64,000 nt of DNA from Minisyncoccota bacterium (lineage in GTDB: Bacteria; Patescibacteriota; Minisyncoccia; Phycocordibacterales; WO2-35-19), in NCBI GenBank assembly GCA_041664625.1, contig JBAYKK010000002.1, forward strand, positions 7,755 to 71,754, in the 5' to 3' direction. This document shows positions 6,751 through 61,688 of the stretch, piece by piece (within the stretch, counting starts at the first letter, position 1; each line of letters begins with the position of its first letter). The notes beneath the pieces are model-generated. The model worked only from the letters and a program-made list of their open reading frames with translations, did no database searches and had not been told where the DNA came from. Made by a program: the position numbers and the translations under genes.

Positions 6751-6957
6751 ATACCTCAAAAAAGCAATTTGGGGCTTCTGATTCCAAAAACTAAAGGCGG
6801 GGGGGAGGGAATTTCGGTCATTACATGACCAGTATCCCGATTGGATAATTTGTTTCGCGTAGCTCACAAATTATGCTCAATCGGGCTTCGAATCCCCCAC
6901 GAAAGTGCTCCCAGCACTTTCTCCTCTCCGCAGATTTTTCACTGCGTTTAAAATCTG

Positions 6958-7046
6958 CGGAGGGGGAGGGATTCGAACCCTCGGTACCTTTTAAAGGGTA
7001 CGCATCTTTAGCAAAGATGCACGATAGACCACTCTGACACCCCTCC
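6958..7046 (-). tRNA. tRNA-Ser, anticodon GCU (type II, long variable arm)
   Basis: Hand-folded: acceptor GGAGGGG/CCCCTCC, anticodon stem CATCT/AGATG with loop TTGCTAA, variable-arm helix GGTACC-loop-GGTACC, T-arm GAGGG-TTCGAAT-CCCTC, discriminator G. Confidence 0.8.
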
Positions 7047-7135
7047 ATCGGATGGCCAAAGCTTTAGCGAAGGCATCCAGTGGCTTATATTCTTACATAA
7101 GCCAGAGCTTTTATCAAAGGATTTCTAACATTTGA

Positions 7136-7201
7136 CCCAGTAGTGAATTTTGGCATTAGTTTCACTATGCACTTTGTGCCATGCCAAAATCTACTACTGG
7201 G
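7136..7201. repeat. MITE-like palindromic element, copy G (arms CCAGTAGTGAATTTTGGCAT / ATGCCAAAATCTACTACTGG)
   Basis: Shares conserved terminal inverted repeats with 6 other copies; flanked by TTGAC on both sides. Confidence 0.7.
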
Positions 7202-7236
7202 TTTGACTATTTTGTTTGTATTTGGTAGCTTTAGAG

Positions 7237-9982: not shown

Positions 9983-11254
9983 ATGAATAATTTTATTCAT
10001 AAAACAAAGTTAGTATTTGGAGATAAGATTTTAAGGGGTAGGATAATGTTCACCCTCTTAGTTTTGGTATTGTTTCGTTTGATGGCGGTGATCCCTATCC
10101 CTGGTATAGATACTTTGAGACTTGAGCAATTTTTGACTGGTAATGACTTCTTTGGCTTACTCAACATATTTTCTGGTGGTGGTCTTTCCAACTTGTCTAT
10201 CATAATGCTCGGAGTGAGCCCTTACATCACTTCTTCTATCATCATGCAACTTATGACGGTCATGTTCCCTAAACTCAAAGCTATGTATCAAGAAGAAGGG
10301 GACGCTGGTCGCAAGAAGTTTTCACAATATTCCAGACTTCTGACTGTGCCTTTGGCATTGATGCAAGGTTTTGCTTTTATCACTTTGCTTCAAAGTCAGG
10401 GTATTTTGGCTAAACTTTCTACTTTTGATTTGGTTACCAACTTGGTAGTTATAAGCACCGGTTCTATATTGCTTATGTGGTTGGGTGAACTTATTTCTGA
10501 ATTTGGTATCGGCAACGGTGTCTCGCTTATCATCTTCGCGGGTATCGTTTCGGTTTTGCCAGGTTCTATAAGCAAGCTTATCGTAGCTTTTGACCCATCA
10601 CAATTGCCAGCTTACCTTGGTTTCTTGGTAGCGGCTTTGGTAGTTATCTGGGGTGTGGTGGTGATCACTGAAGCGGAAAGACCAATACCAGTCACTTATG
10701 CCAAACAAGTCAGAGGCAACAAAGTCTATGGTGGAGTTTCTACTTATTTGCCACTGAGAGTGAACCAAGCGGGCGTGATACCTATCATCTTCGCTCTCTC
10801 TATTTTGCTTTTCCCTCAAATGATAATGAAGTTTTTGGTCAATATTAATATTGCTATCGTACAATCTATCTCTAATTTCTTGTTAGCTCTTTTGGAAAAT
10901 CAGTTGTTTTATGGAGTTGCTTATTTCCTTTTGGTTTTCATTTTTACTTATTTTTACACCGCGATCACTTTTGATCCAGATTCAATTTCCAAAAACTTGC
11001 AAAGGAGCGGAGCCTTTATACCTGGCATTCGCCCTGGTGTTCCTACTTCTCAATACATTGCCAACACTCTTTTCCGTTTGACTATGGTTGGGGCACTTTT
11101 CCTCGGTATCATCGCGGTCTTGCCGTTGGTGGTCAAATACTTCACTGGTATCAGCGCGGTGGCTATCGGTGGTACAAGCCTCCTCATCGTAGTTTCAGTT
11201 GTGATTGATCTCATCAAAAAAGTTGACGCCCAAATTTCCGCTAGGGAATATTAA
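9983..11254 (+). CDS. secY: preprotein translocase subunit SecY
   Basis: 10 TM pattern, conserved LFRLMAVIPIPGID N-terminal region, 423 aa. Confidence 0.9.
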   Translation: MNNFIHKTKLVFGDKILRGRIMFTLLVLVLFRLMAVIPIPGIDTLRLEQFLTGNDFFGLLNIFSGGGLSNLSIIMLGVSPYITSSIIMQLMTVMFPKLKAMYQEEGDAGRKKFSQYSRLLTVPLALMQGFAFITLLQSQGILAKLSTFDLVTNLVVISTGSILLMWLGELISEFGIGNGVSLIIFAGIVSVLPGSISKLIVAFDPSQLPAYLGFLVAALVVIWGVVVITEAERPIPVTYAKQVRGNKVYGGVSTYLPLRVNQAGVIPIIFALSILLFPQMIMKFLVNINIAIVQSISNFLLALLENQLFYGVAYFLLVFIFTYFYTAITFDPDSISKNLQRSGAFIPGIRPGVPTSQYIANTLFRLTMVGALFLGIIAVLPLVVKYFTGISAVAIGGTSLLIVVSVVIDLIKKVDAQISAREY

Positions 11255-11345
11255 AAACAAAAATAAAAAACAAATTCTTCCTCCCTAAAGGGTTCCCACA
11301 GAATTTGTTTTTTATTTTTGTTTTTACTTACTTATTTGCTATACT

Positions 11346-14228: not shown

Positions 14229-14657
14229 ATGTTTAGAAAGCCGCTTTTTTTGGAAACTTTTATTTTACTTGCGACTGTTGGTATTCTTAATTATTTCGCT
14301 ACCCGTTATCATCTCTACTGGTCAACTTACGAATTTGATTCTCTAGTCCATTTTTTGGGTGGAGCCACTTTGTCTGCCTTTTTCTTGTGGGCTTACTTTT
14401 TTTCTGGTTTTTTTGATCCGCAAAAAAGAAAACTCAAAAACTTTTTGTTGGTCGCTTTTTTGGGGGCAATGTCGGTGGCTATAATTTGGGAGATTTATGA
14501 AATTTTTCTAGGCGAAGTGGCCGTGAGTGGAGCCGAATATCCGTACGATACTATGATGGATTTGATTATGGATTTTTTGGGTATTATGGCTTTTTGTTTT
14601 TACGGTTACATGAGAGAGTATAATCAAAAAATGATTATAAAAAATCAAAATGAATAA
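14229..14657 (+). CDS. hypothetical integral membrane protein (4 predicted TM)
   Basis: 142 aa, four hydrophobic segments; no recognisable family. Confidence 0.6.
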   Translation: MFRKPLFLETFILLATVGILNYFATRYHLYWSTYEFDSLVHFLGGATLSAFFLWAYFFSGFFDPQKRKLKNFLLVAFLGAMSVAIIWEIYEIFLGEVAVSGAEYPYDTMMDLIMDFLGIMAFCFYGYMREYNQKMIIKNQNE

Positions 14658-16119
14658 TTTAAAAATCACATTTTTTGGTGGGGCCGGTTCTACTACTGGG
14701 GCTAACATAATGCTTGAAGTTGGAAGTAATCCCACTTCGCCAAAGCTTCGCGGGACAAGAATTTTGGTGGATTGCGGACTTTTGCAAGGTGCTCGATTCG
14801 CTGAAGATAAAAATTTTGAAAATTTCAAATATAACCCAGCTGAAATTGATTTTCTTTTGATTACTCATGCTCATATGGATCATATAGGCAAAGTGCCCAA
14901 ATTGGTGCGTGATGGTTTCAAAGGCAAAATAATATCTACGGTGGAAACTATGGAACTGGCTCGACCGATGCTCGTAGATGCTCTGAAAGTGATGCAAGCT
15001 CGTCACCCCAACCAAACTCTTTTTGAAGAAGCTGATATAAACAAATCTTTTGCTTTGTGGGAAGGCCGAAGTTATGAAGAGAAAATAAATCTTTTTGAAA
15101 ATTGTAGTTTATTTATGCAAGATGCTGGGCATATATTGGGTTCGGCTATTTGCAATGTCACTTGTGGAGTGGGGGAAGAATCAAAGACCATAGCCTTCAC
15201 TGGGGACTTGGGTAATTCGCCTTCGCCTATTTTGCCAGATACCGAGACCCCAAAAGGAGTTGATTATTTGGTTATGGAGAGTGTCTATGGAGATAGGAAT
15301 CATGAAAGCAAAGACGAAAGAAGACAAAAATTAAAACAAGCTATTTTGAATGGCCAAGAAAGAGGGGGTACTATAGTGATCCCGGCTTTTTCCATAGAGC
15401 GGACTCAGGTTTTGCTTTATGAGTTGAATAATATGATTGAAGATCAAGAGATCCCCAAGGTGCCAGTTTTTTTGGACTCTCCTTTAGCTCTCAAAGTAAC
15501 TGATATTTATAAAAAATATCAAAAAGATTTCAAACCATCAGTCCAACAAGAAATACAATCGGGCGATGATATTTTTGATTTCCCTGGTTTACAAATAGTG
15601 AGGAATACCAGAGAGTCAGAAGAAATAGAAAAATTGGCCGGGCCTAAAATAATTTTGGCCGGTTCAGGTATGTCTGAAGGGGGGAGAGTGGTCAGTCATG
15701 AAGCTCGATTTTTGCCCGATCCTACGGCTACTATTATTTTAGTCGGTTATCAGTCAGTCGGTTCATTGGGTAGAGCGATTCAAGATGGAGTCAAAGAGGT
15801 TTTCATAGAGACTGATGGTGACAAGAGCAACGGTAAAGAAAAAGTAAAAGTCAGAGCCACTATTGAAAACATAACTGGTTATTCATCGCACAAAGATTCG
15901 GAGCATTTGCTGGAGTTCGTCGAAAAAGTAAATGACTCGACCTCACCCCCAACCCCTCTCCTTGCGAAGGAGAGGGGAGAAGGAAAAAAAGGATTGAAGA
16001 GGGTTTTCGTTATAATGGGCGAACCCAAATCATCCCTTTTCCTCACTCAACGCATCCGCGATTATCTCGATATTGACGCAGTTTATCCAGAAGAAAATAA
16101 AGAATACGAATTAAAATAA
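14650..16119 (+). CDS. metallo-beta-lactamase fold ribonuclease, beta-CASP family (RNase J-like)
   Basis: HAHMDH motif 2, D...H motifs, beta-CASP motif GYSSHKDSEHL; contains an in-frame hairpin-repeat insertion (TSPPTPLLAKERGEGKKG). Confidence 0.8.
   Translation: MNNLKITFFGGAGSTTGANIMLEVGSNPTSPKLRGTRILVDCGLLQGARFAEDKNFENFKYNPAEIDFLLITHAHMDHIGKVPKLVRDGFKGKIISTVETMELARPMLVDALKVMQARHPNQTLFEEADINKSFALWEGRSYEEKINLFENCSLFMQDAGHILGSAICNVTCGVGEESKTIAFTGDLGNSPSPILPDTETPKGVDYLVMESVYGDRNHESKDERRQKLKQAILNGQERGGTIVIPAFSIERTQVLLYELNNMIEDQEIPKVPVFLDSPLALKVTDIYKKYQKDFKPSVQQEIQSGDDIFDFPGLQIVRNTRESEEIEKLAGPKIILAGSGMSEGGRVVSHEARFLPDPTATIILVGYQSVGSLGRAIQDGVKEVFIETDGDKSNGKEKVKVRATIENITGYSSHKDSEHLLEFVEKVNDSTSPPTPLLAKERGEGKKGLKRVFVIMGEPKSSLFLTQRIRDYLDIDAVYPEENKEYELK
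15940..15977 (+). repeat. R-family hairpin repeat copy R1, inside the beta-CASP CDS, in frame
   Basis: acctcacccccaacccctctc-cttgcgaag-gagagggg matches intergenic family consensus. Confidence 0.7.
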
Positions 16120-16174
16120 CCTCACCCCGTTTTCCTTACGGAAAACTGCCCCTCTCCTAGACGCAGGGGAGGGG
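16118..16174 (+). repeat. R-family hairpin repeat copy R2 (double-hairpin variant)
   Basis: aacctcacccc + gttttccttacggaaaac + cccctctc-ctagacgcag-gggagggg. Confidence 0.7.
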
Positions 16175-16194
16175 AAAAATAAAAAATAAAACAG

Positions 16195-16242
16195 AAAAAC
16201 CCGCCGAGAGGGCAGAGATTTCTGCCGCCGTAGGCGGGTTCT
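16195..16242. terminator. bidirectional terminator between convergent genes (aacccgcc...ggcgggtt)
   Basis: Long GC stem flanked by A-run on plus and T-run on minus reading. Confidence 0.55.
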
Positions 16243-16244
16243 AG

Positions 16245-16787
16245 CTAGAGCAGGCTTCTGCCAGAGAAACTGTGGAAGCCGAGGAGTTCGCCATTGAGTT
16301 TGTCTTCGATTTCCTCACGGCCTAGAAATCTTTCAAAGTCTCCAGACCAGATATTGTTGTATTCAATACCAGAGTCATTATACCTGGCAGGCCCTCGTCC
16401 TCCATTGAAAATTTCCATTTCATAGGATTGACGTATGGCACTTTTCAAAAACGGGATAACGTTTTTGTAGTAAAAGCCATTGTATTCCATCCACCATACC
16501 GGAACCCAAATCAGGTTCACTCGGTAAAAAATCGTGGTGGTGCCAGCCGACCAGTCGGAGAGTGGGGTGGTGCAATAACGATCCACTACCCTGTACTTAC
16601 TATCTTCGGTGGTGTAAGTGATGGTCGTATAACCATCGTTACCGCTTGTTTTGATGGACTTACGGTTTTCGCCGCCGGCGTAACCGTCGAGCATGGCTTC
16701 GAAGAAAGCGGCCTTAGCCCCTTTCAAAATATCCACTTTCAAAACATCTGCTTTTTCCTGATATGTCATGAGAACCTTCCTGGGCAA
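16245..16787 (-). CDS. hypothetical protein (moderately GC-enriched)
   Basis: 180 aa, W/Y/G-rich; no family recognised by eye. Confidence 0.55.
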   Translation of the reverse strand: MPRKVLMTYQEKADVLKVDILKGAKAAFFEAMLDGYAGGENRKSIKTSGNDGYTTITYTTEDSKYRVVDRYCTTPLSDWSAGTTTIFYRVNLIWVPVWWMEYNGFYYKNVIPFLKSAIRQSYEMEIFNGGRGPARYNDSGIEYNNIWSGDFERFLGREEIEDKLNGELLGFHSFSGRSLL

Positions 16788-18517: not shown

Positions 18518-18574
18518 AACCTCACCCCACTTTCCTTCGGAAAGTTGCCCCTCTCTTATATTAAGAGAGGGGAG
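18518..18574 (+). repeat. R-family hairpin repeat copy R3 (double-hairpin variant)
   Basis: aacctcacccc + actttccttcggaaagt + cccctctc-ttatattaa-gagagggg. Confidence 0.7.
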
Positions 18575-19193: not shown

Positions 19194-20255
19194 TTAGTTT
19201 TCTAATAATTTGAGTACTTCAGAATTGATGAGGATGGTAGAAACATAAATACGGGCATTGGTTTCGGAAGCGCTAGGGTAGTGCTTCATAACTTCTTTAA
19301 CTTCGTTTTCCAAAATTTCTTTGTTTGGCTCTAGTTTTTCTGCTTCAGCGATTTTATTAAATATGAGTTGGATTTTGGCCTTTTTTTCAGAACTGTCCTT
19401 CAAATCTTTTTTCAAGTCATCTTCACTCTTTTTGATCTGGGTCAAATAATCGGCAAATTTACCACCCGCTCTTTCTATTTCATCTTTCATTTGGGCCAAA
19501 GATTTTTCGGTCTCGCTCTCTACTAATATATTAGGCAATTCGATATCGGTTTTTTTGACCAAAGCTTCCATGATTTGAGCTCTAGTTTTTTCTATGTTTC
19601 TGGCCTTCTTTTCGGCTACTATGTTTTCTTTTACTTTTTCTTTGAGTTCAGCCAAACTTTTAAAATTACCAGCTACTTTGGCGAATTCATCATCCAAAGC
19701 TGGTAAATCCTCATCTTTGATTTCTGGGTGGTTGTGGCCCGTCTCATCTTTATGAGCTTCATGCCAATCAAAATGCGCCTTGTTCCTTCGGATTTGCAAA
19801 AGTACATCTTCTAATTCTTTGTCTGTTGCCTCAGTTTTTTCTTCCTTGCTTGCTACTTGCTGCTTGCTACTTGCTGCTATTTTCTTATAGTCTGGCAATG
19901 TGAATTCTGGCATCACAGCAAAAACTACTTTGAATTCAACTGGATTGCCCAAGGCCAATTTGGTGATAGAAACTTTAGGTTGGCCGATTATGTCCAATTT
20001 GGCCTCGCTTATGATTTTAGGGAAGTGTTCTTTGAGTAATATATCAGCCGCTTCTCCCAATATTTCTCCTTCGTCTATTTTTTCAATTACTACGTTTTCT
20101 GGTATATGGCCTTTTCTAAAACCGGGGACGTCTAGAGATACACCAAACATATTTATGGCTTTTTTGCGGGCGGATACCAAAAAATCAGCGGGTATGGATA
20201 CTTCCATTTCCACTTCTGATTTTGGTAATTTTTTTATTTTGAATTCGTACGACAT
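19194..20255 (-). CDS. tig: trigger factor
   Basis: N-terminal ribosome-binding domain, PPIase region GFRKGHIP; 353 aa (short form). Confidence 0.8.
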
Positions 20256-20320
20256 CCCGTAGTAGATTTTGGCTATGTTATCACGATTCCGTAGGAATTA
20301 TAGCCAAAATTCACTACGGG
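20256..20320. repeat. MITE-like palindromic element, copy A, abutting tig start codon
   Basis: cccgtagtagattttggc...gccaaaattcactacggg. Confidence 0.7.
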
Positions 20321-20361
20321 AACACCGCACTAGTCTATCAAAATATGATTATTCCGACAAG

Positions 20362-20706: not shown

Positions 20707-21405
20707 TTAATCTTCAATTTTATTAGTGGTTGTGGCAGTAGAAGTAGCTGAAGCGTGTTCTTTTTCAAATTTGTTTTGCCCCCTTTTAAGATTTTCAACT
20801 ACGTTCACTAATGCCTCATGAGCTTTTTTGATATCTTCTTTGACTTTTTCAATTTGTTTTTTGAGAGCTTCAAAATCTTTTTTTATGGTTTGGACTGTGG
20901 TTGAAGCGGCTGATACTGTCGTAGAAGCTGTGCTGGTAGAAATACCAATCAAACTAATACTGGTTTTGGCTATTTCTATTTTGGCCCTGGCTACAGTCAT
21001 GAGTTCTTTGGCTTTAGCCACATCAATTTTTTCGGCTTCCATTTTTGTTATCCTGGAATCTATACGATCGGCCAATTTCACTAATCTGTTTAAGGCGGCG
21101 CCAAACCTCTCTTGTGTGTTTTTAAAAAATTTGTCTACCTGTTCTTTTATTTTACCTACGACGTTTTGTCTTCTTTCTTCAATTGTGTTTTTAACTTCCT
21201 CTTTTTTTTGTTCCACTTCTTGTTTCAAATTTTCTCTTTGAGCTTCTATACCATCTTTGATGGTCTCTCTCTTTTGTTCCATTTCTTGTTTTCTGATTTC
21301 ATTTTGTTCTTGGTTATCGTCGGTAGAAGTGCTAGTTTCACCGAAAGTTAAAACAGGTGATACTAATAAAGCCATAAAAACTAAAAATGTTATTTTTTTA
21401 ATCAT
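20707..21405 (-). CDS. secreted coiled-coil protein, hypothetical
   Basis: Signal peptide MIKKITFLVFMALLVSPVLTFG then E/K/Q-rich heptad-like sequence; start chosen at internal ATG 21403-21405. Confidence 0.55.
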   Translation of the reverse strand: MIKKITFLVFMALLVSPVLTFGETSTSTDDNQEQNEIRKQEMEQKRETIKDGIEAQRENLKQEVEQKKEEVKNTIEERRQNVVGKIKEQVDKFFKNTQERFGAALNRLVKLADRIDSRITKMEAEKIDVAKAKELMTVARAKIEIAKTSISLIGISTSTASTTVSAASTTVQTIKKDFEALKKQIEKVKEDIKKAHEALVNVVENLKRGQNKFEKEHASATSTATTTNKIED

Positions 21406-21487
21406 TTTATTTTTGTTAGATAATAAAGTTCTACGCTGAACATGTTCAATTATACTACAAAAACAAAATTGCAAAAATAAAATGTGT

Positions 21488-22624: not shown

Positions 22625-22647
22625 AATATGCGAATTAACGAATAAAA

Positions 22648-22685
22648 TAACTCACCCCCAACCCCTCTCTTACATTAAGAGAGGG
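22648..22685 (+). repeat. R-family hairpin repeat copy R4
   Basis: aactcacccccaacccctctc-ttacattaa-gagagggg. Confidence 0.7.
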
Positions 22686-22783
22686 GAAAACGAATAAATA
22701 AGAAAGAAAAAATCCGCGGGTAATGCGGAGTGACAATCTTTCAGTATTAAAACCATTATATACCCAAGAGGGTAAACAGTCAA

Positions 22784-22852
22784 CCCCGTAGTAGATTTTG
22801 GCATTGTGGCAAAGCCACCGCACGAAGTGCAATGCCAAAATTCACTACGGGG
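22784..22852. repeat. MITE-like palindromic element, copy B (flanked by GTCAA direct repeat)
   Basis: ccccgtagtagattttggcattg...caatgccaaaattcactacgggg. Confidence 0.7.
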
Positions 22853-22916
22853 TCAAGCCTGCTTTATCTACAGGTGCGCTTTGTTATTTAAATAACCTTA
22901 CCGTATAATTTGAAAC

Positions 22917-25900
22917 ATGAGTAATGAATCTCCCCAAAATCCACAACCTCAATATCCAGAAGGCTACGAAAATTGGCCTCAGGACGACAAAGAAGCTTTT
23001 GTAAAACTAAAAGAAAAGTTAGCCGATGCCGGTATAAAAATACAAATTGTAGAAGCCCAGATGAATCAGGGTATGTACAATGAAGACGAAAAAATTTTTA
23101 AGATTCGTCAAGACGCTAATGATGTCGACTACTTAACTGATTGTGCAGAAAATTCTATTTTTAAAGAACAAGATGGGGTGGATCAGCTGCCAGATCCGGG
23201 ACAAGTAGAAGATATTCACGAAGATCAAGAAGAAGAAACTGAAAAAGAAGATGATGAAGTAGAAGAAAATCGCGTGTTTGGTGGTGAAAAAGACGATGGG
23301 AGTATTGATAATAAAGTTTCTCCAGAACCAGCGATCGTTTCAGCCCCAGCCCCAGCCCCAGCCTCAACTCCGGAACTCCAAACAGAACCAAACACGAATC
23401 CAACTATTGAAGAATCAGGACTGGAAGGAGAAAAATTAGATAATTTTTTAAAAAAAATAGGTATTGCTTTTTTTGTTCACGGAGACGAGTTAGAAAATTT
23501 TAAAAAACTGTATCCTGGTCTTTTGGGAGAAAAATACAAAGAAATAAGAGAAGCATTTGAAGCTTTCTCTGGTAATGAAACTTTAAGAGAAAAGTTTTCC
23601 ACGGTAGTTTTGACTTATCCAAAGGAGTTGTATTATCCAAAAGTTTCTATTGAGCAAGAGATTAGGTTGTATGTAGATCTCAGGGCAACCAAAGAAGATA
23701 TAAGTGATTATCTCAATAATTTACCAGCTGAGGTACCGGGATCCCCAGAGCCGGGTCCATCAGAAATAAAAGAGGCTCTTGGTAAAAATGGAGAAACCAT
23801 AAAAGTGGGTGATAAAGTTGAGTGGGACAGTTTTACGGGTGAAGGGGTGGGTATGCTGGTTTCTTTTGAGAAAACCCCAGGCTCGCACATAAAAGCAATT
23901 ATTGATATCGGCTCAGATCGACAAATGGAAGTGTATGCAGACGAACTTTCTATTGTCAAAGATAATCCAGAGTTTGGGGCTGTGGTTCTGAGGTTGGTAG
24001 AAGAGGGCACAGAAAAAGAAAAACTTTTTGTAAGTCTCGACGAAATAAAAAGTATTATTAGTATTCAGCTTGGTCAGAGTGCAAAAATTGAAGAATTAAA
24101 TTTATCAGAAACTACTGAGGGTTTGCAATTAATGGTTAAACTGAATGCTGGAATGATGGGAGGTAAAATATCAATGGAAGGTAAAATAGTTAATATTGGA
24201 AATGATATCGCGGTTCAGGATTTGAATATTCAGGCTCGGGGTTATGTTAAATCTCAGATTGAAAGTAATGTTGCAAGCTTTAGTTCGATAATAAAAACAT
24301 ATTTTGAAAAACAAAAAGGAAAATCTGTATCAGGCCTACAAATAAGTGGTTCAGGATTAGTTGTAGAATTTGAAAATAAAAAAGCTCTAAAACCAACAGC
24401 AGTTACTTCTGAGTCTGATATTCCACCAGCCGCAGTTTCTACTGGAGAGAATCAGCCTGGTAATGGAGAGGAGTGGCAAAACTGGGAAGATTGGACGGAG
24501 TTTGAAAAAACGAGAGCTAGGAGAGCTAAAGGAGAAGTTGAGCATAGTCAAATAAGTGAAATCATAGATGGTATATATAAATCCCAAAAAAATAATATTG
24601 CTAAAAAAATAGAAGAAACTCTTAGGAAAAATGCCGGAGAAAATTTGACACCCGAACAAGAATTGGAACTGCGATCAAAAATAAACGACAAGATTTTTGA
24701 AGAGTTGGTCCAAAAGGAAAATGAGGCGTACTTAACGGTTTTGAAAGAAGCTCGAGGCGAAACTAAGATGGGTAAAGTGCTTGAAGGTGCCAAAAGTTTG
24801 CTCAGCACCAAAGCGGTGCAGTGGTATTTGGGGCTTTCTAAGACGCAGAGAATAGGGGTAAGTTTGGCGATTGGTGGTTTTGCTGGTTTTGCTATTGGTG
24901 GAGCGACTATAGGTGCGCTGGGGGTGGGAGGTTATTTAGGAAAAAGAGCTCTCACTGCTGTCACTGGTGCTGGAATGGGAGAATTGGTAAACAAAAAAAA
25001 GAGCTGGTCATTGGAAGAAATAAATAAAAATGAAGCAGAAGAAATTGAAGGTTTAAAAAAATCAGATTTTGATTTGGAAAAAAAATCAGAAAAATCTGCT
25101 GAAATAGATAAAAAATATAAAAAAGCAAGATTGAAAGCGGCTGCTTGGAAATTTGGTTTAACTGTCGCAGCTGGTGCTGGCACGAGTCTTTTGGCTAATC
25201 TTGCTGAAGGTGCATTTGTGGGTGTTGGTAGTGGTGGTGCTACCAAATCGGCTTTGGAATCAAAAGGTGGTAAATCTGCTCCTATTCAAGAAAGATTACC
25301 AAGAAAAGGTTTTGAACCAGGCCAAAAAACAGCTTCAGCTCCTGAAGGTTCTGTCTCAAAAACAACTGAATCTGTCGAGCCAACAAAATCATCTAGCCCT
25401 AGACCAGCCGAGGCCGTTATGCCAGAACCACAAATTGTGGCTAGACCAATACCATTCAAAGAAGTGCCAACTGAATCGGTGGTGATAAAGACACCAGCCG
25501 TATTGGAAATGTCAGAGCCATCAGCTCCAGAACCTGTGGTTTTAGAAAAAATATTTGATAATCCAGAAGTTTTGATACACGAAGTGAAAGCGGGGGATTC
25601 CACTTGGAATATTTTGAAAGAAACGCTGAATAATAACGAACAATTTAAAGGGTTAACCGAAGCCCAGCAGACTTATGTTTTGAGTAGTTTAACCAATAAA
25701 GTACTCCAAAATCCGCAGGATTACGGTTTGGGTGATGAGGGGGCTATCCAAATTGGAGATAAAACAGATTTCACTAAACTTTTTGAAAATACCAAAGAAG
25801 TAAATGCGATTTTTGAAAAAGCTAGTCAGACCATAACAGCCGGTGGCCCACAAGAAGTTTCTATTTTAGCCAACAATGCAAAGATCGCCAATTGGGTCAA

Positions 25901-26669
25901 CGCTCATCCAAATGAAGCTCTTACTGAAGACAAAGTAACTGAAATTTTAAGTACCAAAGAAATTTTGAGAGCCAAATATATAAATATGCCAATGCCAGAA
26001 GTTGCGACTGAACCATCGGTCACACAGACACCGGAAGTGCTAGAATTTTCAAAAGAACCAGATATTTTGCCAGAAGCCCTGGGGACACCAGAGGCACCAT
26101 TAGGGAAACCAACAGTAGATATGAATCCGGGGGAAACTGTCATGGCGGGGACCGGCTTAGCTGCCATGGGGCTTCTAAATAAAAACAATAGAAATCAATT
26201 AGAGGAGGAAATCAGGCAAGCCAAAGATAGATTGGGCGTACTTGAGGGCGGAAGAGCTAAAAACCCTAATTTGGAAAGGACTATGATGTCAGATTCTAAA
26301 TTTAACCAAGAGTTAGAAATGGCCTTTTTGGGCGAAATAGACAGTATATATGGCAAAAGTGGTTTGTTGGGTATAGGCCGAACACCGGGGATAAAGACCA
26401 AAGAATGGGCAGAAATGGCCAAAATTCCGGCTGTTAAGTTGGTAGAATATTATACCGGCGATTCTACAAAGGCTGGGCTTGCTCCAGACATTATCAAAAA
26501 ACTCACTATGAAAAATCATCAAACTTTGATGAGACAAATGGCGGGTCTCATGGAACAATCAAATGGAGCGGTCAAGCCGTTTGAAAATGAAAACGTAGAA
26601 CAATTTATTAGAAGATTGGGGGGCTATGTTTTGAGGACTCATTCTCAAAATTTAGCCAAAGCGGCATAA
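22917..26669 (+). CDS. giant hypothetical protein (1250 aa) with acidic/Pro-rich low-complexity, coiled coils and a Gly-rich TM cluster
   Basis: Single long ORF; PAPAPAPA and E/K-rich tracts; IGGFAGFAIGGATIGALGVGGYLG hydrophobic region. Confidence 0.7.
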   Translation: MSNESPQNPQPQYPEGYENWPQDDKEAFVKLKEKLADAGIKIQIVEAQMNQGMYNEDEKIFKIRQDANDVDYLTDCAENSIFKEQDGVDQLPDPGQVEDIHEDQEEETEKEDDEVEENRVFGGEKDDGSIDNKVSPEPAIVSAPAPAPASTPELQTEPNTNPTIEESGLEGEKLDNFLKKIGIAFFVHGDELENFKKLYPGLLGEKYKEIREAFEAFSGNETLREKFSTVVLTYPKELYYPKVSIEQEIRLYVDLRATKEDISDYLNNLPAEVPGSPEPGPSEIKEALGKNGETIKVGDKVEWDSFTGEGVGMLVSFEKTPGSHIKAIIDIGSDRQMEVYADELSIVKDNPEFGAVVLRLVEEGTEKEKLFVSLDEIKSIISIQLGQSAKIEELNLSETTEGLQLMVKLNAGMMGGKISMEGKIVNIGNDIAVQDLNIQARGYVKSQIESNVASFSSIIKTYFEKQKGKSVSGLQISGSGLVVEFENKKALKPTAVTSESDIPPAAVSTGENQPGNGEEWQNWEDWTEFEKTRARRAKGEVEHSQISEIIDGIYKSQKNNIAKKIEETLRKNAGENLTPEQELELRSKINDKIFEELVQKENEAYLTVLKEARGETKMGKVLEGAKSLLSTKAVQWYLGLSKTQRIGVSLAIGGFAGFAIGGATIGALGVGGYLGKRALTAVTGAGMGELVNKKKSWSLEEINKNEAEEIEGLKKSDFDLEKKSEKSAEIDKKYKKARLKAAAWKFGLTVAAGAGTSLLANLAEGAFVGVGSGGATKSALESKGGKSAPIQERLPRKGFEPGQKTASAPEGSVSKTTESVEPTKSSSPRPAEAVMPEPQIVARPIPFKEVPTESVVIKTPAVLEMSEPSAPEPVVLEKIFDNPEVLIHEVKAGDSTWNILKETLNNNEQFKGLTEAQQTYVLSSLTNKVLQNPQDYGLGDEGAIQIGDKTDFTKLFENTKEVNAIFEKASQTITAGGPQEVSILANNAKIANWVNAHPNEALTEDKVTEILSTKEILRAKYINMPMPEVATEPSVTQTPEVLEFSKEPDILPEALGTPEAPLGKPTVDMNPGETVMAGTGLAAMGLLNKNNRNQLEEEIRQAKDRLGVLEGGRAKNPNLERTMMSDSKFNQELEMAFLGEIDSIYGKSGLLGIGRTPGIKTKEWAEMAKIPAVKLVEYYTGDSTKAGLAPDIIKKLTMKNHQTLMRQMAGLMEQSNGAVKPFENENVEQFIRRLGGYVLRTHSQNLAKAA

Positions 26670-28293: not shown

Positions 28294-28361
28294 ACACCTC
28301 ACCCCTAGCCCCTCTTCATCGTCTGTTCGATTCTGCTGAATCGCCTAGATTAGGAGAGGGG
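28294..28361 (+). repeat. R-family hairpin repeat copy R5 (expanded, extra inner hairpin)
   Basis: acacctcacccctagcccctcttc...cgattctgctgaatcg...ggagagggg directly after tuf stop. Confidence 0.65.
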
Positions 28362-28838: not shown

Positions 28839-28984
28839 TTATCAACAGCGGGTCTTGCGCTTATTTGGGGTTTGTGATATACTTAATTATGTGAGTGTGG
28901 GAAAGCAATTTTCAGCACAAATGAATGTCTGCGAAAGCGCCACCCTCGGGTGGCATTTTCGTTGGTTTTTGGCTATAAATTTGA

Positions 28985-29051
28985 CCCGGTAGTAGATTTT
29001 GATATCGCACTTAAAGTGCCGGCAAGGCCAATATCAAAATTCACTACTGGG
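28985..29051. repeat. MITE-like palindromic element, copy C (flanked by TTGAC direct repeats)
   Basis: cccggtagtagattttgatatc...gatatcaaaattcactactggg. Confidence 0.7.
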
Positions 29052-29079
29052 TTGACTTTATTTTTTGAGGGAGTATAAT
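29052..29079 (+). promoter_or_regulatory. strong sigma70-like promoter TTGACT-N16-TATAAT; -35 box lies in the MITE target-site duplication
   Basis: Hexamers read directly. Confidence 0.5.
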
Positions 29080-38054: not shown

Positions 38055-38065
38055 TCTCATTTGAT

Positions 38066-38132
38066 CCAGTAGTAGATTTTGACATTACACTTCATGCTGT
38101 GGCTTTGCCACGATGTCAAAATTCACTACTGG
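38066..38132. repeat. MITE-like palindromic element, copy D (TTGAT / TTGAC flanks)
   Basis: ccagtagtagattttgacat...atgtcaaaattcactactgg. Confidence 0.7.
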
Positions 38133-38133
38133 A

Positions 38134-38161
38134 TTGACAATAAAACGTTATTTGGTAGTAT
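38134..38161 (+). promoter_or_regulatory. promoter TTGACA-N16-(TGg)TAGTAT upstream of rpsS; -35 adjacent to MITE end
   Basis: Read directly. Confidence 0.4.
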
Positions 38162-39617: not shown

Positions 39618-40037
39618 ATGTTATTCCCAAAAAAAGTTAAATACAGAAAATGGCATACCATGCGCGAAAATCCTGACAAAGTGAGTCCGGCTACTCGTGG
39701 TATCAAAGTGTCTTTTGGTTCTCATGGCCTCAAAGCCATGGTACCCGGCAGGATCACTTCCAAACAAATCGAAGCGGCTAGAAAAGCCATCACTCACAAT
39801 TTGGGTAAAACTGGTAGAGTTTGGATACGTATTTTCCCAGATATGCCTTTCACCAAAAAGCCAGCCGAAGTGAAAATGGGTAAAGGTAAAGGTGATATAG
39901 AAGGTTACTTGGTCAGAGTTTTGGCTGGGCAAGTGATGTTTGAAGTAGATGGAGCAGTTGATGCTGTGGCCGTAGAATCATTGCGCAAAGGCGGTACCAA
40001 GATGCCAGTGAAGACTAAGATTGTGGCTAGAATATAA
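39618..40037 (+). CDS. rplP: 50S ribosomal protein L16
   Basis: [13 protein letters not shown]... Confidence 0.9.
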
Positions 40038-40075
40038 CACCCCCCAACCCCCCTCTTACATTAAGAGGGGGAGAG
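40037..40075 (+). repeat. R-family hairpin repeat copy R6 (between rplP and rpmC)
   Basis: acaccccccaacccccctct-tacattaa-gagggggagag. Confidence 0.7.
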
Positions 40076-40566: not shown

Positions 40567-40944
40567 ATGATTCAACCACAAACAATAGTTAAAGTAGCCG
40601 ATAACTCAGGAGCCAAGATAGGTCGCGTTTTCAAGATACTCGGCAGTTCCAAAAAAAGATACGCTGGCATAGGCGAGTTGGTTATTTTTTCTGTTCAAAA
40701 AGCTGAACCCCGAAAAGAAATAAAAAAGAAAGCCGTTCTTTTGGGATTGGTGGTTCGTCAAAAAGCGCCATTACGACGCAAAGACGGTTCTTATATCCGT
40801 TTCGATGAAAACGCAGTGATCGTAGTAGATCAAAAAAAGGGTGAGATCGTACCAAAAGCCGGACGTATCTTTGGTCCAATACCTAGAGAAATTGCTGAGG
40901 CTGGTCACCAAGCTATAGTTTCGTTAGCCCCGGAAGTGATTTAA
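40567..40944 (+). CDS. rplN: 50S ribosomal protein L14
   Basis: MIQPQTIVKVADNSGAK. Confidence 0.9.
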   Translation: MIQPQTIVKVADNSGAKIGRVFKILGSSKKRYAGIGELVIFSVQKAEPRKEIKKKAVLLGLVVRQKAPLRRKDGSYIRFDENAVIVVDQKKGEIVPKAGRIFGPIPREIAEAGHQAIVSLAPEVI

Positions 40945-40948
40945 GATA

Positions 40949-40989
40949 ACACCCCCCAACCCCCCTCTTACATTAAGAGGGGGGAGGGA
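40949..40989 (+). repeat. R-family hairpin repeat copy R7 (between rplN and rplX)
   Basis: acaccccccaacccccctct-tacattaa-gaggggggaggg. Confidence 0.7.
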
Positions 40990-41238: not shown

Positions 41239-41280
41239 AAACCTCACCCCCAGCCCCTCTCCTAGATGCAGGAGAGGGGA
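41239..41280 (+). repeat. R-family hairpin repeat copy R8 (between rplX and rplE)
   Basis: aacctcacccccagcccctctc-ctagatgcag-gagagggg. Confidence 0.7.
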
Positions 41281-41309: not shown

Positions 41310-41858
41310 ATGAAATTAATGAAAGAAAAAACCAAAGACGCCTTCAAAGAACTCAAAGAAAAATTGGGTATGAAAAATGTCATGCAGTCTCCCAAGATTG
41401 TGAAAGTGGTAGTGAATTCCGGAGTTGGTTCTTTCAATGATAAAAAGAAAATTGATATCGTTATCGACCGATTGGCCAAAATCACTGGTCAAAAACCGAT
41501 CAAAAGGGGAGCCAAACAATCAGTCGCATCTTTCAAATCTAGACAAGGTGATATCGTAGGAGTGCAGATCACTTTGCGTGGCGAAAAAATGTGGAGTTTT
41601 TTGGATCGTCTTTTTCATATCGCGTTGCCTCGTACCAAAGACTTCAGAGGGATTTCAGAGACTGCCGTAGATGAAATGGGTAACTACACACTTTCCATCA
41701 AAGAGCATGTCGTGTTCCCAGAAACTGCTGATGAAGATTTGAAAGACGTTTTTGGTTTTTCAGCTACTTTGGTCACCAATCTCAAAAACTCAAAAGATGC
41801 ACTCGAATTTTTCAAAGCTCTAGATTTTCCTTTCAAAAAAACTTCTCTTAAGAAATAA
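41310..41858 (+). CDS. rplE: 50S ribosomal protein L5
   Basis: NVMQSPKIVKVVVN... L5 pattern, 182 aa. Confidence 0.9.
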   Translation: MKLMKEKTKDAFKELKEKLGMKNVMQSPKIVKVVVNSGVGSFNDKKKIDIVIDRLAKITGQKPIKRGAKQSVASFKSRQGDIVGVQITLRGEKMWSFLDRLFHIALPRTKDFRGISETAVDEMGNYTLSIKEHVVFPETADEDLKDVFGFSATLVTNLKNSKDALEFFKALDFPFKKTSLKK

Positions 41859-41908: not shown

Positions 41909-41921
41909 CAGATTCTTAATA

Positions 41922-41954
41922 ACACACCCAACCCCCTCTTATTTTAAGAGGGGG
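41922..41954 (+). repeat. R-family hairpin repeat copy R9
   Basis: acacacccaaccccctct-tatttta-agaggggg. Confidence 0.65.
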
Positions 41955-47704: not shown

Positions 47705-47754
47705 AGTCCGAATTTGGCTAAAATGTCATTTGACATTTTAGCCAAATTCGGACT
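47705..47754. repeat. perfect 50-bp palindrome (24-bp arms agtccgaatttggctaaaatgtca / tgacattttagccaaattcggact, 2-nt centre)
   Basis: Read directly; covers the start codon region of the downstream ORF. Confidence 0.85.
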
Positions 47755-60736: not shown

Positions 60737-60756
60737 TATTATTTAAATAATGCAAT

Positions 60757-60827
60757 CCCGTAGTGAATTTTGACTATAATTCCTGCGGAATCAGTTAAAA
60801 ATTAACATAGTCAAAATCTACTACGGG
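60757..60827. repeat. MITE-like palindromic element, copy F, flanked by 7-bp direct repeat ATGCAAT (second copy is the pilD start)
   Basis: cccgtagtgaattttgactat...atagtcaaaatctactacggg; TSD at 60750-60756 and 60828-60834. Confidence 0.75.
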
Positions 60828-61688
60828 ATGCAATATATTTTTGGGGTACTTATATTTTTTGTCGGTACTGCTTTGGGGAGTTTTATCGCCGTGATTGCCG
60901 ATCGCTACAACACAGGGCTACCCTGGACCAAAGGCCGGTCAATTTGTTTTTCTTGTGATACTGAACTTAAAAATAAAGATCTTTTCCCTTTGTTTTCTTT
61001 TTTGTGGCTCAAGGGCAAATGCCGATATTGCCAAAGCAAAATTCCTAGAGAGACTTTTTTTGTGGAAATTTTGATGGGCGCTCTCACAGTTTTAGCTGTT
61101 TTTAAATCTGGTTTTTTGGGTTTTGATTTTTCTTCCTTAATTCTTAATTCATACTTCATAATTCAATTTTTACTTTTAACTGCTATTTTTGGAAATATCC
61201 TTCTGATTTCTATTTATGATCTTAAGCATTTCATTATTCCCGACGTTTTTTTAATTTGTTTCTTTGTTTTTGCTTTTATTCTTAATTCCTACTTCATAAT
61301 TCATAATTCACTTTCTTATTTTTTCATAATTCAAAATCTGCTTTCTGGTCTTGTTTTAACTTTACCGTTTCTTCTAATATTTTTGATTTCACGAGGGGCT
61401 TGGTTTGGATTTGGGGACGTGAAGTATATTGCGGTTTTGGGGTTTTTCCTTGGTCTGGTGCAGGGTTTGTCAGCGGTAGTTTTGGCTTTTTGGATTGGAG
61501 CGGTTTTTGCTGTTTTGGCACTGGTTTTTAAAAAAATTACACCCTATATAAATTTGCCTCTGTTTAAAAATAATCTTACAATTAAGTCTGAAATACCATT
61601 TGGACCTTTCCTTTCTTTGGGGATAATAATAAGTTTTTATTTGAGTCTAGATTTATTTTACATAAATGAAATATTTAAATTTTTCTAA
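60828..61688 (+). CDS. pilD: prepilin peptidase PilD (A24 family)
   Basis: N-terminal CxxC...CxxC zinc motif, multiple TM, conserved GFGDVK Asp region. Confidence 0.85.
   Translation: MQYIFGVLIFFVGTALGSFIAVIADRYNTGLPWTKGRSICFSCDTELKNKDLFPLFSFLWLKGKCRYCQSKIPRETFFVEILMGALTVLAVFKSGFLGFDFSSLILNSYFIIQFLLLTAIFGNILLISIYDLKHFIIPDVFLICFFVFAFILNSYFIIHNSLSYFFIIQNLLSGLVLTLPFLLIFLISRGAWFGFGDVKYIAVLGFFLGLVQGLSAVVLAFWIGAVFAVLALVFKKITPYINLPLFKNNLTIKSEIPFGPFLSLGIIISFYLSLDLFYINEIFKFF

Follow-up and report, generated by a model that had tools for sequence, protein, structure and literature searches.

A small dispersed hairpin repeat of triplex type, probably placed in frame in a loop of a conserved beta-CASP ribonuclease gene

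Introduction

How does a short GC-rich hairpin repeat come to lie inside the coding sequence of a conserved ribonuclease while leaving its reading frame intact? The question is raised by a stretch of 64,000 nucleotides from a Minisyncoccota bacterium (GenBank assembly GCA_041664625.1, contig JBAYKK010000002.1, positions 7,755 to 71,754 of the forward strand), referred to here in its full length as the window. An earlier reading of its letters alone, the sequence-only reading, had drawn attention to a 38-nt hairpin repeat within a gene for a beta-CASP metallo-beta-lactamase ribonuclease. The answer given here, which is held with good confidence, is that the 38-mer is a copy of a small dispersed repeat of intrastrand-triplex/hairpin type, put in frame into a loop of this conserved gene.

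The 38-mer and its host gene

The 38-mer ACCTCACCCCCAACCCCTCTCCTTGCGAAGGAGAGGGG occupies positions 15940-15977 of the plus strand, in frame within open reading frame (ORF) 14650-16119. The sequence-only reading had placed a hairpin-repeat copy in frame in this ORF, and this is confirmed; the family to which it belongs has nine copies in the window. The element encodes TSPPTPLLAKERGE in the protein context ...VNDSTSPPTPLLAKERGEGKKGLKRVF..., also seen as ...EFVEKVNDSTSPPTPLLAKERGEGKKGLKRVFVIMGEP..., and peptides bridging the insert junction, such as VNDSTSPPTPLLAK, are predicted from the ORF. Motif B (GYSSHKDSEHL) precedes the element and the motif-C strand (VFVIMGE) follows it; the frame used contains no stop codon within it. 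Its arms, CCCCTCTCCTT and AAGGAGAGGGG, form a stem of 11 perfect pairs; folded as single-stranded DNA, the stem has z = -3.4 versus shuffles, a value that concerns the hairpin and not a triplex, as the folding tools cover Watson-Crick hairpins only. The element is conspicuous in base composition because the G+C content of the window is 38%. Its parts are listed in Table 1.

The host ORF carries the Pfam domains Beta-Casp (1.1e-34), Lactamase_B and RMMBL. In a phmmer search against the PDB, the closest solved structure for the 489-aa protein is TTHA0252 of Thermus thermophilus (E = 1e-68), and the alignment stops at residue 425, directly before the insert. The protein carries THAHMDH, H161, D186 and H414, and the frame is unbroken through the insert at the 38-mer, called site D, and through a second one nearer the N terminus, called site A. 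At the position of motif C (window 16015-16023, VIMGE) it has Met where TTHA0252 has His400. The same Met (xMGE) is found in essentially the whole Paceibacterota family, including orthologues about 50% identical, the exception being the distant locus L097 (HGE, VHGE), and it has nothing to do with the insert.

Ancestral state of site D

The comparison covers 120 orthologous proteins and 134 genomic loci (L numbers), divided into a close, Zambryskibacteria-like clade with at least 58% identity and distant orthologues with about 44-54% identity. The segment from ...LEFVExx to KVFVxMGE measures 5-10 residues in 101/101 distant orthologues scored (5 in 76 of them, 7 in 19), and long inserts at site D are confined to the close clade. 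Within that clade, the empty-site DNA AAAATAAATGAATCAAAAAAACTCAAAAAAGTT of L003 aligns with both flanks of the window insert, in the form AATGACTCG[ACCTCACCCC...GGGGAGAAGG]AAAAAAAGGATTGAAG. With its purine tail AGAAGG, the unit that empty-site orthologues lack is slightly longer than 38 nt and extends over about 15940-15983. The insert is ancestrally absent at site D, and the 38-mer belongs to a repeat family rather than being a chance match. The earlier claim of an insertion, as against an old linker, is borne out by these short distant linkers and by the L003 DNA that matches both flanks.

The occurrence of the peptide follows that of the repeat. Pyrimidine-arm hairpins have a density per kb of 0.145 in close-clade loci, 0.11 in the window and 0.010 in distant loci, a difference of about 14-fold between close and distant. 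The sequence-only reading had named, as an observation that would speak against it, the same peptide in orthologues from genomes without the repeat; the repeat-poor genomes are found without the peptide, and it is the rich clade that has it.

The location of the insert in the protein has been modelled with AlphaFold2 on a 119-sequence alignment. The model has a mean predicted local distance difference test score (pLDDT) of 88.2 and a predicted template-modelling score (pTM) of 0.90, and it shows a complete fold with a target-normalised TM-score of 0.94 to TTHA0252 (3idz). Residues 432-446 have pLDDT <50 and no secondary structure; they are preceded by helix 417-429, next after motif B, and followed by strand 451-455, at the motif-C position, and site A is at the turn between model strands 19-24 and 36-40. 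The model therefore puts the insert of site D in a predicted disordered, low-confidence surface loop, in agreement with the earlier suggestion that it is probably tolerated in such a place. Given a frame without a stop and a disordered loop, the insert most likely just adds about 15 translated residues (TSPPTPLLAKERGEG) to the protein, which tolerates them.

Three-block architecture

Beyond the hairpin, each unit carries a C-rich box on its 5' side. Across copies this box mirrors the pyrimidine arm, and equals a parallel copy of the purine arm in which G is changed to C and A is either kept or changed to T. Examples are CCCCACCCC-TCA-CCCCTCCCC-AAA-GGGGAGGGG in L007, TAACCCACCCC-AA-CCCCTCCCTTA...TAAGGGAGGGG in L086 and TAACACCCCCC-AA-CCCCCCTCTTA...TAAGAGGGGGG in the window copy at 40946. 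The box covaries with the stem: when each of 29 distinct stems has one representative, boxes match their own stem at 0.80, and permuted pairings give 0.67 (0.72 at most among 5000 permutations). For the full set of 55 hairpins, the score is 0.81 in the mirror register and 0.65 in the direct one.

Read on the minus strand, positions 15941-15977 give CCCCTCTCC-TTCGCAA-GGAGAGGGG-TTG-GGGGTGAGG, with 9/9 triads allowed. The succession of pyrimidine arm, loop, purine arm, linker of 2-3 nt and G/T/A block is that of a purine-motif intrastrand triplex (G.GC, A.AT, T.AT). A scan with ITxF-like rules (homopyrimidine arm, loop, purine arm, short loop and antiparallel third block, with a stem of 6-15 nt and at most one mismatch) finds six motifs with at least nine triads in the window, the G-rich strand being minus in each of them, and none in 29/30 dinucleotide shuffles. 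By its sequence the 38-mer reads as a complete three-block intrastrand triplex motif, and its DNA, with the G-rich strand on minus, could fold into a purine-motif triplex. Other structures, namely an i-motif, a G-quadruplex and pairing between box and tail, were dropped on inspection by eye for having too few tracts or no complementarity.

The repeat family in the window

Hairpin-based patterns give two matches each in the window against 0 expected. The family comprises nine copies in the 64 kb, all on the plus strand and eight of them intergenic, with starts at 15940, 16120, 18520, 22650, 28297, 40036, 40946, 41242 and 41918. Several of the intergenic copies start exactly at a TAA stop codon or a few bases beyond it, and those at 40034-40071 and 40946-40983 are identical over 38 nt. 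The copy that directly follows the stop of the ribonuclease gene has an orthologue in L086, and L002, L007 and L088 carry other variants at that junction. Linker hairpins with TTCG loops are present at 16129-16146 and 18529-18545, and hairpins nested in the main loop are found in the copy at 28297 and in L002 at 13772. Small hairpins nested in the loops of triplex-type copies (window 28309-28361, L002 13772-13827) indicate that repeats insert into repeats.

Over the whole window, Rfam at gathering thresholds returns two tRNAs only and no family matching the repeat. A permissive search of 14600-16300 placed the Rfam serC leader on the copy at 16129-16174 below threshold (26 bits versus 35), a hit treated as chance. 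The scan for intrinsic terminators does not call the in-gene and post-stop copies, which have no T-run; only 16200-16216 on the minus strand looks like a terminator.

Orientation and a proposed junction preference

Orientation has been recorded in a census of 37 well-defined copies from the window and the close loci. Twelve of the 37 lie at most 30 nt past the stop of a long ORF, all in sense, with 0 antisense copies there; where gene pairs converge, two copies face each other. In-frame positions inside genes account for a sizeable minority of the 37. Of the 13 copies that a script assigned to the inside of long ORFs, several are stop-to-stop ORF or orientation artefacts. In a separate set of 13 in-gene copies (beta-CASP, RsmE), for which the DNA was read by eye, the C-rich strand is the coding strand in every case. 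A single reading frame common to all in-gene copies was considered and rejected, since most share one and the RsmE copy of L079 uses another. Since an antisense copy could be read without a stop in two of its three frames, stop codons do not explain the sense-only orientation, which therefore points to a strand-specific mechanism or to selection against G-rich mRNA.

The left edge of the copies is also regular. It reads TAAC in 23/37 copies and AAC in 28/37. At the stop junction of the beta-CASP gene, four variants (that of the window and L086, and those of L002, L007 and L088) start at the same bond, TAA^C, where the caret marks the junction, and empty sites read TAA^AAA...; at site C, a further insertion loop of the protein, filled sites read GAAATA^AC... 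and empty ones GAAATA^T/G.... These edges suggest a left-junction preference for sites of (A)ATA^A type, (A)ATA^AC. In an AT-rich genome whose genes often end in ...AAATAA, such a preference would account for the copies on TAA stop codons. Target-site duplications are not resolvable in the A-rich flanks, where short ones such as AAATA are indistinguishable from background.

Recurrent loops, turnover and exchange of copies

Site D is filled in 67/119 close orthologues, with at least seven peptide types, EDGERSRT included; at the DNA level these inserts are mostly of the same hairpin kind with differing stems. In other genomes, three more loops of the beta-CASP protein receive inserts of this kind, namely residues 26-35 (site A), 173-176 (site B) and 386-394 (site C), and at least one insert at sites A-D is present in 88/119 close orthologues. 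On a neighbour-joining tree, the type at site D takes 57 Fitch steps against a shuffled mean of 63, and its presence or absence takes 26, so that the insert state has almost no phylogenetic signal. The window protein has inserts at A and D, whereas P0003, beside which it clusters, has none at either site. A second gene behaves likewise: the one for an RsmE-like 16S rRNA methyltransferase carries triplex-type repeats of different variants in one variable loop in L008 (11850-12557) and L079 (11051-11764).

Copies in different places of one genome can be the same. In L002, the site B copy of the beta-CASP gene equals the site D copy over 45 nt, and in L008 the beta-CASP copy equals the RsmE copy over 46 nt. 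Between genomes, the window insert is identical to that of L082 at 41/44 positions, where the host genes are 75% identical and their third codon positions 52%, and to that of L008 at 40/44, where the corresponding values are 62% and 43%. Being much better conserved than synonymous sites, the insert cannot have drifted jointly with the gene that hosts it. It came in later from a conserved pool, or has been corrected against other copies, or is under a constraint of its own. Gain, loss or replacement has been recurrent at site D and at the three other loops, and copies are identical within genomes. The sequence-only reading had called the family mobile and open to exaptation into protein. The first part is retained, given sites that are present or absent, differing repeat types in close orthologues and identical copies within genomes; the second would go further than the intact reading frame does, and nothing suggests a new protein function. 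The third block of the element, the additional insert at site A and the recurrence of inserts in four loops had escaped that reading.

Other inserts share these loops. The window insert at site A (Table 1), which most orthologues lack, belongs to a different small repeat, whose core CTTCGCYAARGCTWCG is flanked by a variable stem and recurs in the window at 7057-7072 on the minus strand and in L002, L003, L007, L084, L088, L089 and L110. Its places include the region just upstream of tRNA-Ser (window, L007), site C of the gene (L088/L089) and the loop of a triplex-type copy (L002), in which it is nested. At the site D loop, 14/119 orthologues have an insert of EDGERSRT type, a DNA hairpin ATGGY...RCCAT unrelated to the other inserts. 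As a dispersed repeat this type (L084, L006) was rejected, since its core GAGCGAAGTCGA has 3 matches in the 134 loci and none in the window. A possible deletion remnant is seen at L085 8400-8426, which retains only the 5' box AAACTCACCCCTAAAAAAAG, with the peptide NSPLKK. Site D linkers APKK, APSK and ASQK, found in several orthologues (L081, L088 and L086 among them), are shorter than the ancestral NESKKLKK and may likewise be remnants.

Proposed account and alternatives

In the account proposed here, a copy of the repeat was placed in frame in a loop where it was ancestrally absent. To judge from the intact frame, it would be translated and neutral or nearly so, like the Rickettsia palindromic elements (RPEs; PMC10969869). 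Spread would take place by copy-and-paste or by gene conversion from other genomic copies, possibly aided by replication problems that the structure causes; candidate routes are gene conversion, template switching at replication-stalling structures, or an enzyme that recognises the fold. We hold more tentatively, and consider possible at best, the larger proposal that the BoxC/PIT-type motifs of this Paceibacterota clade are an actively spreading, strand-specific element that prefers (A)ATA^AC, hence TAA stops, and repeatedly rewrites protein surface loops.

Several points weigh against this account. The intact reading frame is what suggests translation of the insert, and the architecture is what suggests triplex formation. 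The term mobile rests on comparative patterns, as neither a transposase nor a target-site duplication nor an excision product came to light; for transposases, RAYT included, the search was confined to ten neighbouring ORFs, among which none was found. Event counts are rough, since the neighbour-joining tree of orthologues 60-80% identical is poorly resolved, and a single early insertion with conversion between copies and losses afterwards would look much the same. Where the stem has A, the position facing it is A or T, for which reason the purine motif applies to the minus strand only, and a purine-motif triplex cannot form in RNA (PMC4666352). Yet the sense orientation after stops, like the TTCG loops, suggests that RNA may play a part, or at least that transcripts matter. 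The intergenic copies may thus act as DNA (triplex, instability) or as RNA (3'-end hairpin).

The alternative that survives best, although it is rather unlikely, is a variant of the main account: one ancient insertion in the ancestor of the clade, later homogenised by gene conversion and often deleted. It would fit the exact right junction that different variants share (window and L001: ...AGG AAAAAAA(A)GGATTGAAGAGG), the post-stop-codon junction that different variants likewise share, and possible deletion remnants, such as the L085 box and the short APKK linkers. It fits less well with left junctions that vary between genomes, with unrelated insert types (EDGER, CTTCGC...GCTWCG) in the same loops and with a phylogenetic signal near that of shuffled tips. 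Moreover, it still needs DNA copied from other genomic copies, and the repeat is dynamic regardless.

It is improbable that the structure is retained in the gene or its mRNA for a role in this gene, for instance by causing a pause, by forming an internal 3' end or by serving autoregulation of the ribonuclease, with the peptide as a by-product. A perfect 11-bp GC-rich stem has been kept, the insert is better conserved than the synonymous sites of its host, and hairpins of different sequence occupy the same site in orthologues, all of which such a role would explain. However, the insert is lacking in 44% of close orthologues and in all distant ones, units of the 38-mer type, the same throughout a genome, also occur between genes and in RsmE, and neither a terminator-like T-run nor an Rfam match is found.

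A fast-evolving native linker, resembling the repeat by chance or through low-complexity Pro/Gly coding, is very improbable: loop length does vary in the family, but the linker is uniformly short in the distant orthologues, and a three-block nucleotide match with exact identities of 26-46 nt to other copies concerns a motif expected 0 times by chance. That the repeat was mis-joined into the gene by assembly or binning can be practically dismissed, for although the source is a metagenome-assembled genome (MAG) and repeats can cause mis-assemblies, the identical 489-aa protein is recorded as a 'Candidatus Paceibacterota' MAG protein in ncbi, jgi and ena on two contigs, in-frame inserts are present at the same loops in dozens of independent assemblies, and the frame and both flanks are intact.

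Relation to known elements

The insertion account can be set beside several known systems. The BoxC/PIT/TMECO repeats of E. coli have the consensus CCCTCNCCC N3-6 GGGNGAGGG N3 GGGNGAGGG (Holder et al. 2015, PMC4666352; also Hoyne & Maher 2000). They form triplexes in vitro, occur in facing pairs and in unstable intergenic regions, and are connected with genomic instability (PMC4666352). The repeats described here have the same plan, in which a loop of 3-6 nt separates a C-rich from a G-rich arm and a loop of about 3 nt leads on to another G-rich block, of purine-motif (class II) type on the G-rich strand; they are likewise about 37 nt long, multi-copy, GC-rich within the genome, found in facing pairs and associated with local insertions, deletions and rearrangements. 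The TMECO consensus has no match in the window or in the 134 loci, and its literal absence makes the present repeats a separate sequence family of the same design. Copies in E. coli are 'always intergenic', show no strand bias and are not linked to mobility (PMC4666352), whereas copies here also lie in frame in genes, 12/12 of those at gene 3' ends are in sense after the stop, and filled and empty sites are seen.

RPEs are dispersed palindromic repeats that lie in frame in unrelated conserved genes, with the frame preserved and at positions compatible with the fold (PMC10969869). The repeats of this clade resemble them as in-frame palindromic insertions that preserve the host ORF (beta-CASP sites B, C and D and the RsmE loop) and in their position in loops. 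They differ, by description, in length (38-45 nt against about 100-150 bp with a conserved peptide module), in the mirror-repeat third block, and in a rapid, recurrent turnover at the same loops where RPEs are old shared insertions. With REP/RAYT elements and MITEs they have in common short GC-rich multi-copy hairpins, located mostly at gene ends, and a short conserved 5' tag beside the hairpin; unlike in REP, this tag is (T)AAC and not GTAG or CGTC, and unlike in MITEs, no terminal inverted repeats beyond the hairpin arms and no target-site duplication can be defined. The GC clusters and double-hairpin elements of fungal mitochondria are likewise small GC-rich palindromes of an AT-rich genome; they vary from strain to strain, and some lie within coding regions. 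Their context is organellar, and they are not known to have a triplex-type third block.

RPEs and BoxC/PIT/TMECO repeats are each known; what is new is the combination of triplex-type repeats in conserved genes of the candidate phyla radiation (CPR) with recurrent hot loops, sense-only orientation and abutment on stop codons, for which literature searches returned no paper. BoxC/PIT/TMECO repeats have been known for decades, and their link to 'instability' in E. coli is a loose one. In the present clade, the question of movement becomes directly testable, thanks to clean filled and empty sites in a conserved gene, identity within genomes, strict orientation and a left-junction preference. Active spread, if true, would be the first direct filled-versus-empty-site evidence of mobility for this class of repeats and would point to an enzyme, or to replication-linked copying, that recognises the folded three-block structure; the loops rewritten would be four of one RNase and one of RsmE, both essential proteins. 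The repeats also show a route by which very small genomes vary the length and sequence of protein surface loops. In practice, a CPR protein 'linker' that is first Pro-rich and then Gly/Arg-rich can be a translated repeat, a point of consequence for annotation, alignment and phylogeny.

Other features of the window

Table 1. Positions of the host gene, its inserts, the copies of the repeat family and other repeats (window coordinates, except where a locus is named)
Feature	Positions	Strand	Evidence
Host gene, beta-CASP metallo-beta-lactamase ribonuclease, TTHA0252-like, 489 aa	14650..16119	+	ORF list, Pfam, PDB match, model
Second in-frame insert, site A, residues ~26-35, GSNPTSPKLRGT; different small repeat with core CTTCGCYAARGCTWCG; boundaries approximate	14726..14756	+	~9 extra codons vs 16/19 close-clade loci
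Inserted repeat copy, site D: 38-mer plus purine tail AGAAGG, predicted peptide TSPPTPLLAKERGEG	15940..15983	+	Filled vs empty site alignment
C-rich 'third-strand' box CCTCACCCC (minus strand GGGGTGAGG)	15941..15949	+	9/9 canonical purine-motif triads with purine arm
Linker (loop 2) CAA	15950..15952	+	Linker of 2-3 nt in most copies
Pyrimidine arm CCCCTCTCCTT	15953..15963	+	Repeat alignment, DNA folding
Hairpin loop GCG; with 9-bp stem counted as 7-nt loop TTGCGAA, 15962-15968	15964..15966	+	Folding, triplex scan
Purine arm AAGGAGAGGGG	15967..15977	+	Repeat alignment, folding, triplex scan
Family copy directly after the beta-CASP TAA stop: box CCTCACCCC, extra small linker hairpin, then hairpin CCCCTCTCC/GGGGAGGGG	16120..16174	+	Pattern match, folding
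Family copy, TTCG-loop hairpin in linker, between minus-strand genes RNase Y and ClpP	18520..18572	+	Pattern match
Family copy TAACTCACCCC-CAA-CCCCTCTCTTA...TAAGAGAGGGG, between divergent nusA and 1250-aa ORF	22647..22686	+	Pattern match, triplex scan
Family copy, ~30-nt nested hairpin in loop, starts 6 nt past TAA stop	28297..28361	+	Pattern match
Family copy abutting stop of ORF 39618-40037	40034..40071	+	Pattern match, triplex scan
Family copy abutting stop of ORF 40567-40944	40946..40984	+	Pattern match, triplex scan
Family copy nearest to in-gene copy in box and stem, between TAA stop and ATG at 41310	41242..41279	+	Pattern match, triplex scan
Family copy TAACACACCC-AA-CCCCCTCTTA...TAAGAGGGGG	41918..41954	+	Pattern match, triplex scan
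EDGERSRT-type insert loci	L084 11249-11338, L123 535-624, L006 11204-11269		
Copies of repeat with ~22-nt arms	7135-7202, 20255-20321, 22783-22853, 28975-29061, 38064-38134, 60755-60829		

The window contains another dispersed repeat, unrelated to the one described here, whose inverted arms of about 22 nt each, ACCCnGTAGTAGATTTTGnCAT ... ATGnCAAAATTCACTACnGGGT, are placed 11-29 nt apart; it is present in six copies. A 16-bp GC-rich inverted repeat, CCTCTCCGCAGATTTT / AAAATCTGCGGAGGGG, at 6923-6969 overlaps the 3' end of the tRNA-Ser gene (6957-7046, minus strand). Two long perfect AT-rich inverted repeats are located at 11252-11326 and 47705-47754, the one with 27-nt arms 21 nt apart and the other a near-palindrome with 24-nt arms. 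Extra segments that Pfam coordinates suggested in NDK and NusA do not look like translated repeats and were set aside. No Pfam match is found for the 1250-aa ORF 22917-26669 (plus strand) or for the 255-aa ORF 20707-21474 (minus strand), and their neighbours are housekeeping genes (Ham1, NDK, RNase Y, ClpP, trigger factor and NusA).

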